From Escherichia phage EC.P1, in sequence record PQ657772.1: DNA of 64,000 bases; one strand, 5' to 3'. Below the pieces are notes generated by a model. That model saw nothing but the letters and a program-made list of their open reading frames with translations, did not search any database and was not told the origin of the DNA. This document shows positions 16,828 to 18,040 of this stretch, piece by piece; within the stretch, counting starts at the first letter, position 1; the number at the start of each line of letters is the position of its first letter. The position numbers and the translations under genes are program-made.

Positions 16828-17072
16828 TGTGCATCCTTTGGAATAGTGTTAAGGCGTGTACGGTTTACAATCTTCCTGCACATGAGATTAAGATCTTGCC
16901 CATGACGCATCTCATGGCAAGCATACAATGTACCATCATAGTTAAGTTTAGTCAAATTCTGGCGAATGAACTCTGCATCAGCCTCCTGAACTTTAGGTGC
17001 ACAGCCACAGAGAGTAATGGACACAAATATTGTTAATGTAATGAATATATTTTTCATGATATTTTTTCTCAT
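16824..17072 (-). CDS. putative small lipoprotein
   Basis: 82 aa; N-terminal hydrophobic segment ending SITLCGC (lipobox-like). Confidence 0.45.
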   Translation of the reverse strand: MRKNIMKNIFITLTIFVSITLCGCAPKVQEADAEFIRQNLTKLNYDGTLYACHEMRHGQDLNLMCRKIVNRTRLNTIPKDAQ

Positions 17073-18040
17073 TTTGGGCTATAACCACTTTTAATTTTAG
17101 AAATTACTTTCTTCTCGAAGAACTTACGTGCTTCTTCAATAGTTTTGAATTCTTCACCATCTGTAGTACTGGTTTTACCAATAGCACCATACTCAATAAT
17201 TACTTCACACACTGGAGCATTCAATTCAATATTATAGAATTTGTTCGAAGAACCGTGAACATATTCCAAATGTACATTATCAGGAATGTTCTGCACATAA
17301 TCATAGTTCTTGAAGATAATATCAATCATATTTTCTTCACCGCGATCAGGAAATAGTTCAGTATTATTCAGTACTAAACGCTGTGCAGCACGGAACATAT
17401 CAAAATATTGTTCACCTTTTTTCAGTTCTTTTGTATCAGAACAGAAATGACCATAGTATTCTACATAATCATTCCAAGGATAAATTCCTTCATCAGCAGT
17501 TTCAAAAGCGTAAGTTTCATCTTGTGGAACTTTAAAACCACGAGTTTTTGGATGGGAAATTAAGCACAGTGAAATATTATGACCGATATCTGAATCATCA
17601 GTAATACTACCACCAACCATATGAACAACATTTTTAATACGTTCAAAATCTACATCTTCAATTTCATGATACATTAAATGTTCTTCAATATTACTTACTA
17701 GTAATGAATTACCATTTCCTGCATCGAATTCAAAAATGAAAAGTTCTACACAATCTTCTTCTTTCATTTCAATAGTATCACTGAGTTTAATATACTCATT
17801 TTTTACTTGTTCAATATTTTCATGAGAACCAAAACTATAACGAGAACTGATATAACTACTACCATCCAACCATCCCATATCCCAAGGTTCTTCTGACATG
17901 TATTCGGTGCTATAGAAATCAGTCAAATCATCTCTCTGAGTACAAACCGTAAGAGAACGAACATTATTAAGACCTTGAACTTCAAGATTCAGTACTGTAG
18001 TGTTGCCGATTTTTTGTTCAGAAATAATTTTAGTTTTCAT
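17069..18040 (-). CDS. WGR-domain protein with uncharacterised N-terminal domain
   Basis: 323 aa; C-terminus HGSSNKFYNIELNAPVCEVIIEYGAIGKTSTTDGEEFKTIEEARKFFEKKVISKIKSGY fits WGR pattern (KFY-x-h-x-L ... GxIG ... EA..F.K....K.GY). Confidence 0.5.
   Translation of the reverse strand: MKTKIISEQKIGNTTVLNLEVQGLNNVRSLTVCTQRDDLTDFYSTEYMSEEPWDMGWLDGSSYISSRYSFGSHENIEQVKNEYIKLSDTIEMKEEDCVELFIFEFDAGNGNSLLVSNIEEHLMYHEIEDVDFERIKNVVHMVGGSITDDSDIGHNISLCLISHPKTRGFKVPQDETYAFETADEGIYPWNDYVEYYGHFCSDTKELKKGEQYFDMFRAAQRLVLNNTELFPDRGEENMIDIIFKNYDYVQNIPDNVHLEYVHGSSNKFYNIELNAPVCEVIIEYGAIGKTSTTDGEEFKTIEEARKFFEKKVISKIKSGYSPK

Follow-up and report, generated by a model that had tools for sequence, protein, structure and literature searches.

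A WGR-domain protein with an orphan N-terminal domain encoded on a swap cassette of Asteriusvirus jumbo phages

WGR domains are best known from poly(ADP-ribose) polymerases (PARPs). The prokaryotic side is represented by structure 2ra8, the WGR-domain protein Q64V53 of Bacteroides fragilis, and we know of no prokaryotic or phage WGR domain for which DNA binding, a ligand or a function has been shown experimentally. In PARP1, PARP2 and PARP3 the domain acts as a sensor of breaks, and residues N127 and R153 of PARP2 are essential for stable DNA binding (PMC6294510). For jumbo phages, Iyer et al. (2021; PMC7824862) give QAY00573.1 as an example of a transcription factor with a WGR DNA-binding domain, a label that is a prediction in the passages of their article that treat this protein. 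The gene is also named "WGR domain-containing protein" in several GenBank records. Because of this annotation and of the published example, which is identical to the protein analyzed here, the WGR half has to be regarded as known, and novelty cannot be claimed for it. New with respect to the prior record are the orphan partner domain with its obligate fusion to WGR, the tiny, phage-restricted distribution of this N-terminal domain family, a WGR-only allele in one relative, and a recombination scar together with a cassette polymorphism at the WGR locus.

Genomic setting and the WGR domain

The gene resides on the minus strand at 17069..18040 in a stretch of 64,000 nt from Escherichia phage EC.P1 (PQ657772.1), referred to here as the window, and belongs to a long run of minus-strand genes. 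According to the ORF list it is a complete, ATG-initiated reading frame of 323 codons, to which the given coordinates add the stop codon, and its translation holds all strings cited in the initial annotation, so that the underlying observation is real. Over the 3 kb surrounding the gene, identity reaches 99.9 % with Escherichia phages Ecwhy_1 and fEgEco12 and about 89 % with the PBECO4/phAPEC6 group; all of these belong to the Asteriusvirus jumbo myophages, with genomes of about 350 kb. The 323-aa protein itself is 100 % identical to QAY00573.1 (Ecwhy_1) and XBS49310.1 (fEgEco12). With a GC content of 31.9 %, compared to 34.4 +/- 2.7 % across the window, the gene is unremarkable; the full protein has a pI of 4.6 and ranks as the sixth most acidic among 85 ORFs, the proteome median being pI 5.4. 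Rfam revealed no RNA family in the 14-21 kb section of the window, and the genes neighbouring the WGR gene gave no informative Pfam match.

Two domains make up the protein, an N-terminal orphan domain (residues 1-250, 17291..18040, minus strand) and a WGR domain of the prokaryotic type (residues 256-322, 17075..17275, minus strand), past which the protein ends after 1-3 residues. The C-terminus had been proposed to fit the WGR pattern, and this is borne out: Pfam PF05406 covers residues 256-322 with E=1.3e-10 and 41.6 bits (gathering score 22), is the sole Pfam-A match in the protein and also matches all other family members, the distant P0028, P0029 and P0031 included. A profile of 26 family members matches chain 2ra8_A, which contains a WGR domain (E=1.5e-6), as well as the WGR domain of PARP3; a profile restricted to the WGR part gives 2.7e-8 and 2.3e-4, respectively, and newly matches the PARP2 WGR domain (0.04). 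Used on its own as a short query against a word index, the WGR part yielded only 3 candidates. Structurally, the WGR part consists of a four-stranded antiparallel sheet and a long C-terminal helix and superimposes on solved WGR domains. In place of the literal Trp-Gly-Arg signature the phage protein has Y284-G285-A286. Y284 and G285 are invariant across the family, the third signature position is occupied by A, G or P, and the bacterial structure 2ra8 carries Y-G-K. Judged by this alignment, Y-G-A is a prokaryotic variant of the WGR motif and gives no ground for exclusion.

We mapped the PARP2 WGR-DNA contacts described by Obaji et al. (2018; PMC6294510) onto the phage protein via an HMM alignment to PARP2 and PARP3. 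PARP2 K130, which contacts the 5'-phosphate, corresponds to phage K267, the backbone contacts Y132, K179 and K183 to Y269, K311 and K315, and W151, which stacks on the ribose, to Y284. These five phage residues are invariant or nearly so within the family and support a predicted, generic binding of the phage WGR domain to DNA backbone or ends. N127 and R153, both on the 3'-side and allosteric in PARP2, are matched by S264, which is variable, and by A286, and the segment carrying Y201, the 5'-phosphate sensor, is missing in the phage protein, which ends in SGYSPK. As far as these residues can tell, a PARP-style break-specific switch is not supported. At pI 6.1, the WGR part is close to neutral.

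The orphan N-terminal domain

Residues 1-250 are acidic, as initially described (pI 4.43, net charge about -27), and the approximately 250 N-terminal residues indeed fall outside every recognised family or solved fold in profile and fold searches. PHROGs, NCBIfam and PADLOC contain no significant family for the domain, BFVD gave no match at E<=1e-3, and 15 N-domains scanned singly against Pfam at E<=10 produced nothing but scattered single-member noise. Candidates dismissed as noise were a ThsB TIR-like match (PADLOC E=0.028), Spond_N (E=0.17) and SidE_mART (E=0.055, one of 15 members). That residues 1-90 form a degenerate second WGR domain was considered and rejected at an hhalign probability of 0.13 % or less. 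A match to structural proteins, which would have spoken against the initial annotation, was looked for as well and no such fold was found; the same holds for ART, macro or NADAR folds and motifs in the N-domain.

The secondary structure is of the alpha+beta type with seven strands and proceeds from a three-stranded meander (residues 2-34) via a beta-alpha-beta-beta-alpha-beta segment (66-144) to a helical region (175-250). This order suggests a ferredoxin/ACT-like core with family-specific elaborations. Seven residues, G60, G71, N117, G144, D148, D149 and P164, are invariant throughout the extended family, and conservation of the polar N117, D148 and D149 argues for a specific, putative functional site. 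The full-length structure model reaches a pTM of 0.90, which indicates that, in the model at least, the two domains are rigidly packed and fixed relative to each other. It is conceivable, if rather doubtful, that the N-domain represents an undescribed fold with an activity of its own, be it small-molecule or nucleotide sensing or metal-dependent catalysis via N117/D148/D149, that is delivered to nucleic acid by the WGR domain. If so, the protein would be a phage-specific analogue of PARP logic, a sensor combined with a non-ART effector, that serves counter-defence or the handling of DNA ends and travels on a mobile cassette.

Distribution and polymorphism of the locus

We retrieved 27 full-length homologues. 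The N-domain occurs exclusively in fusion with WGR, in about 35 protein clusters that so far all stem from phage or phage-like contigs. A full HMMER search with the N-domain profile against 1.84 billion cluster representatives returned eight proteins, namely four representatives of the known family, the distant P0028, P0029 and P0031 with the same N-domain plus WGR architecture, and one spurious FN3-repeat giant. An iterated profile search seeded with the distant members found 16 proteins, all of them containing WGR and none with a new architecture. Pattern scans detected no relatives in IMG/VR or in the 185,579 species-representative genomes of GTDB. On the DNA level, 35 phage records match the region and the protein is encoded in only 17 of them, which are 16 E. 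coli phages and Erwinia phage Hallingskeid (39 % identity).

Two of the more distant loci feature neighbours of their own. Directly downstream of the gene for P0029, an HD_4 gene encoding a RelA/SpoT-type HD hydrolase is present (positions 4097-4855 of that contig), and such a neighbour is not found at the other loci. A distant family branch is encoded at 10001-11071 on the phage-like 65-kb contig ERR14760639_6, nearly all genes of which are ORFans; within 10 kb on either side, genes for RNase T, a radical-SAM protein, an AlaRS fragment and a TROVE (Ro-like) protein are located.

The metagenomic jumbo-phage contig ERR2738550_6342 (L011) contains a gene at 10001-10240 for a WGR-only protein of 79 aa, P0033. 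It is syntenic, being flanked by the 66-aa and 226-aa neighbours that are also present in the related contig L002, in a position that holds a 319-aa two-domain gene in relatives. Compared to L002, where the nucleotide identity of the background is about 75 %, a clean loss of about 709 bp has removed N-domain residues 3-238. P0033 retains all family-invariant residues, and comparison with the WGR part of the L002 gene gives dS 0.51, dN 0.092 and dN/dS 0.18; because of this the WGR module appears to be selectable on its own. On the same contig L011, nrdD for anaerobic ribonucleotide reductase (18552-20240) is apparently split by an HNH_3/NUMOD1 homing-endonuclease ORF, suggestive of an intron or intein-like insertion; nrdD is intact in the related locus L003 and in relatives of the window phage.

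The WGR-only allele fits a combination of binding and modulatory modules better than an indispensable enzyme equipped with a targeting tag. This bears on an explanation that assigns the recognition of DNA nicks, ends or 5'-phosphates to the WGR domain and makes the N-domain a new effector, either enzymatic with a metal site at N117/D148/D149 or end-protecting, by which phage DNA breaks or host DNA would be processed or shielded. The break-sensing role of the domain in PARPs (PMC6294510), conservation of the stacking aromatic residue and of three Lys/Tyr backbone contacts, invariant N, D and D residues as they are typical of catalytic or metal sites, and the report of bacterial WGR proteins in DNA-damage regulons (PMC8533742) all agree with it. 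However, with a WGR-only allele in existence and the break-specific residues missing, we deem this explanation unlikely.

Near-identical phages differ in whether they carry the gene at all. In phages WPEC3 (flanks 99.9 % identical) and CMSTMSU, window positions 17007-18170, an indel/swap cassette to which no strand is assigned, are replaced by 239 bp. The cassette comprises the WGR gene, the upstream spacer with the scar described below and the initial 22 codons of the lipoprotein gene located downstream. The latter is an 82-aa lipoprotein-like ORF with lipobox LCGC (16824..17072, minus strand, ORF list), the start of which overlaps the WGR stop codon by 4 nt, an arrangement shared by L003; its counterpart in fEgEco12 is annotated as "membrane protein". 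The 239-bp replacement encodes a 59-aa lipobox protein and provides the downstream gene with a different signal peptide. In the WPEC3 record the 59-aa ORF lies at 1362-1541 and starts with a lipoprotein-type signal (MKILLVLIAVLMVLSC...). The downstream lipoprotein-like gene varies between 77 and 82 aa and has the alternative signal peptide in the WGR-less phages. The WGR gene is a dispensable accessory swap cassette, since the protein is present in only 17 of the 35 region-matching records and since the cassette is replaced in near-identical phages.

Between the WGR gene and its upstream neighbour lies a spacer of 130 bp (18041-18170, minus strand), which GenBank annotates as a 34-aa CDS (fEgEco12 g227). 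Its in-frame translation, CALDMFALQCDNMSPEEMEREFLTYMNVKLVKWRKSFQ followed by a stop, matches the last residues of the upstream protein of the metagenomic relative L003, in which this protein has 297 aa. As read from this match, the spacer is a recombination scar, in other words a fossil in which the C-terminal tail encoded by the longer form of the upstream gene (297 aa) persists as an orphaned copy. Because the spacer reproduces this tail, the WGR gene evidently came by recombination and brought along a piece of its former neighbour.

Neighbourhood, expression and putative function

The initial annotation saw a hint of a wider ADP-ribose/nucleic-acid-sensing theme in the presence of Sir2 and Nudix genes in the same phage. 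Both genes are confirmed in the window, Sir2 at 22892..23644 and a Nudt16-like Nudix gene at 22344..22895, as is a cREC domain at 22014..22334. The distance between the WGR gene and the Nudix gene amounts to 4.3 kb or about eight genes. In metagenomic relatives a NAMPT - Acb1 - Sir2 - Nudix - cREC - PIN/PhoH block recurs upstream of the WGR gene; the conserved counter-defence/NAD block spans 20214-23644 (minus strand) in the window, 1-5829 in L002 and 1-6789 in L011, the Acb1-like gene being present in L002 and L011. The PhoH homologue of the PIN-PhoH ATPase is virion-associated in phage phAPEC6 (gp341c). Elsewhere in the window, at about 11469-11795 (minus strand; fEgEco12 g240), a DUF4326 gene is situated between nrdD and nrdG homologues, and for DUF4326 a link of NAD+-utilising systems to DNA modification is predicted in the relevant passages of Iyer et al. 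(2021; PMC7824862).

If the WGR protein belonged to an ADP-ribose/NAD+ module and cooperated there with Sir2 and Nudix of the phage, for instance as a sensor of ADP-ribosylated nucleic acid, this would agree with the prominence of WGR in PARPs and with the location of Sir2, Nudt16-like Nudix and cREC genes 4-6 kb upstream on the same strand, a synteny that is kept in metagenomic relatives. However, Sir2 homologues are found in 569 phage records (118 at >=80 % coverage) and the WGR protein in 17. Sir2 is retained in the WGR-less Asteriusviruses WPEC3, WPEC5, Turkey3 and CMSTMSU, as is the neighbouring Nudix gene wherever it is annotated, and no Sir2 or Nudix gene is located within 10 kb of the distant family branch on contig ERR14760639_6. 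The Sir2/Nudix neighbourhood is a lineage-wide synteny and not a specific association with the WGR gene. Furthermore, Iyer et al. (2021; PMC7824862), in the passages concerned, treat the Sir2 of Ecwhy_1 among the NAD+-centred systems and list the WGR protein apart from it, under transcription factors. Because of the unequal numbers of records, the WGR-less phages, the distant branch, the lack of an ART, macro or NADAR fold in the N-domain and this separate placement, we reject a functional link between WGR and Sir2/Nudix. The proposed theme is not supported, as the gene is distributed independently of Sir2 and Nudix and the N-domain has no ART/macro-type fold; with gene distribution already largely refuting it, membership in an ADP-ribose module is highly improbable.

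Inside the scar, a near-consensus sigma-70 promoter-like site matching in 11 of 12 positions was noted in a consensus scan (18159..18131, minus strand). It consists of TTGACA, a 17-nt spacer and a TG-extended GATAAT, the end of the -10 element lying 91 nt upstream of the ATG of the WGR gene. phAPEC6 has the same site without any change; in L003 the corresponding sequence is still coding and lacks the site. Across the window, 17 sigma-70 matches with at least 11 of 12 positions occur on the coding minus strand and none on the plus strand; further minus-strand matches are located, for example, at 49226..49198 and 62129..62101. Because of this strand bias the sites are read as very probable promoters for host RNA polymerase, which suggests that such putative early promoters are dense across the gene block. 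For the WGR gene, the sigma-70-like site points to probable early expression. The site is part of a pseudogenised remnant of coding sequence and could have arisen by chance, and a literature search returned nothing relevant on the Asteriusvirus transcriptome.

Published data are available for the virion of phAPEC6, in which 62 proteins were identified by ESI-MS/MS. The phAPEC6 homologue of the WGR protein, gp336c (98.5 % identical), is not among these 62 proteins of that other phage, although the nearby gp323c, gp341c and gp347 were detected. A structural or virion-associated role, for which the one point in favour is the location in a genome with mostly unannotated proteins, has hardly any chance of being correct considering this result, the absence of the protein from about half of the sequenced relatives and the lack of any matched structural-protein fold.

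The same virion data, combined with other features of the locus, would be in line with an anti-defence or host-takeover factor that acts as an acidic, DNA-mimicking decoy or competes with WGR proteins of the host, for instance the WGR-ARM partners of type XIII retrons or MolR/DUF4132 proteins. The presence/absence polymorphism between near-identical phages with an unrelated small gene as replacement, the early-type sigma-70 promoter-like site upstream, the net charge of -27, the occurrence of WGR-like domains in retron XIII accessory proteins (PMC7736814) and a region rich in counter-defence genes (Acb1, Sir2, Nudix and cREC in relatives) would all suit such a role. We nevertheless regard it as quite unlikely: no match to known anti-defence families exists, the values for PADLOC WGR_XIII (E=0.044) and ThsB (E=0.028) being insignificant, and acidity is common among the proteins of the window.

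The reading that we favour, tentatively and without considering it probable, is that the WGR protein is an early, non-virion, accessory DNA-binding regulator with a ligand-sensing or partner-recruiting orphan domain. DNA binding, early expression and the regulatory or sensory role of the N-domain are the parts of it that we infer. The WGR domain would dock on DNA via the contacts it has in common with PARP2, i.e. K267, Y269, Y284, K311 and K315. Packed rigidly on it, the N-domain with its putative ferredoxin/ACT-like core and invariant G71, N117, D148 and D149 would serve as the ligand-sensing or partner-recruiting module, and both domains together may regulate DNA transactions of phage or host in the manner of a one-component system. 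ADP-ribosyltransferase activity has no part in this proposed mechanism, which is in line with the "WGR transcription factor" reading in the pertinent passages of Iyer et al. (2021; PMC7824862), where the identical protein is listed as such. The well-scoring model with its fixed domain placement argues for a regulator, as does the finding that the N-domain never occurs without WGR and that a WGR-only allele persists, consistent with separate binding and modulatory modules. The near-consensus, TG-extended sigma-70 site with the 17 to 0 strand bias and the absence of gp336c from the virion proteome point in the same direction. On the other hand, an acidic protein with an only neutral WGR part is unusual for a DNA-binding regulator, the invariant Asn and Asp-Asp could equally mark a catalytic metal site, the promoter-like site in the remnant, absent from L003, is possibly fortuitous, and PARP2 N127 and R153 lack conserved equivalents and the Y201 segment is missing.

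As it stands, little is added here beyond existing annotation, and no new NAD/ADP-ribose system is revealed. The protein is small, folds confidently and presents WGR in a minimal context, which makes it a tractable system for the binding properties of non-PARP WGR domains. Natural controls are available in the WGR-only allele and in near-isogenic phages that either carry or lack the WGR gene, and the N-domain represents one more orphan fold confined to giant phages.

Compared to known WGR proteins the domain order is distinctive. In 2ra8 and proteins of the E. coli MolR/YehI type, WGR is N-terminal and followed by an LRR-like region or DUF4132, whereas in the phage protein WGR is C-terminal and preceded by the orphan domain; a DUF4132 match in Pfam and a repeat region are lacking, and the family is phage-only. 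Unlike PARP1, PARP2 and PARP3, the phage protein has neither an ART catalytic domain nor the H-Y-E triad. The helical regulatory (HD) domain that follows WGR in DNA-dependent PARPs is absent and the domain order is reversed. With respect to PARP2, the differences extend to the non-conserved N127 and R153 and the missing C-terminal Y201 segment. ACT/RAM/NikR-type ferredoxin-like regulatory domains align with only about 70 of the 250 N-domain residues at 1-14 % identity and without a profile match; they have no counterpart of the three-stranded N-terminal meander or the 75-residue helical region. The WGR transcription factor example of Iyer et al. (2021; PMC7824862) is the same protein, and their account, in the passages devoted to it, is confined to the WGR domain and the predicted transcription-factor role, without the N-domain, the distribution, the WGR-only allele or the cassette polymorphism. 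The accessory protein of retron type XIII combines a WGR-like domain with HEAT/ARM repeats and is host-encoded, whereas the phage protein is phage-encoded and free of repeats; the match covers the WGR region alone and falls short of significance (PADLOC WGR_XIII E=0.044), and no reverse transcriptase lies near the phage gene. What both have in common is a WGR-like module in the context of phage-bacterium conflict (PMC7736814).
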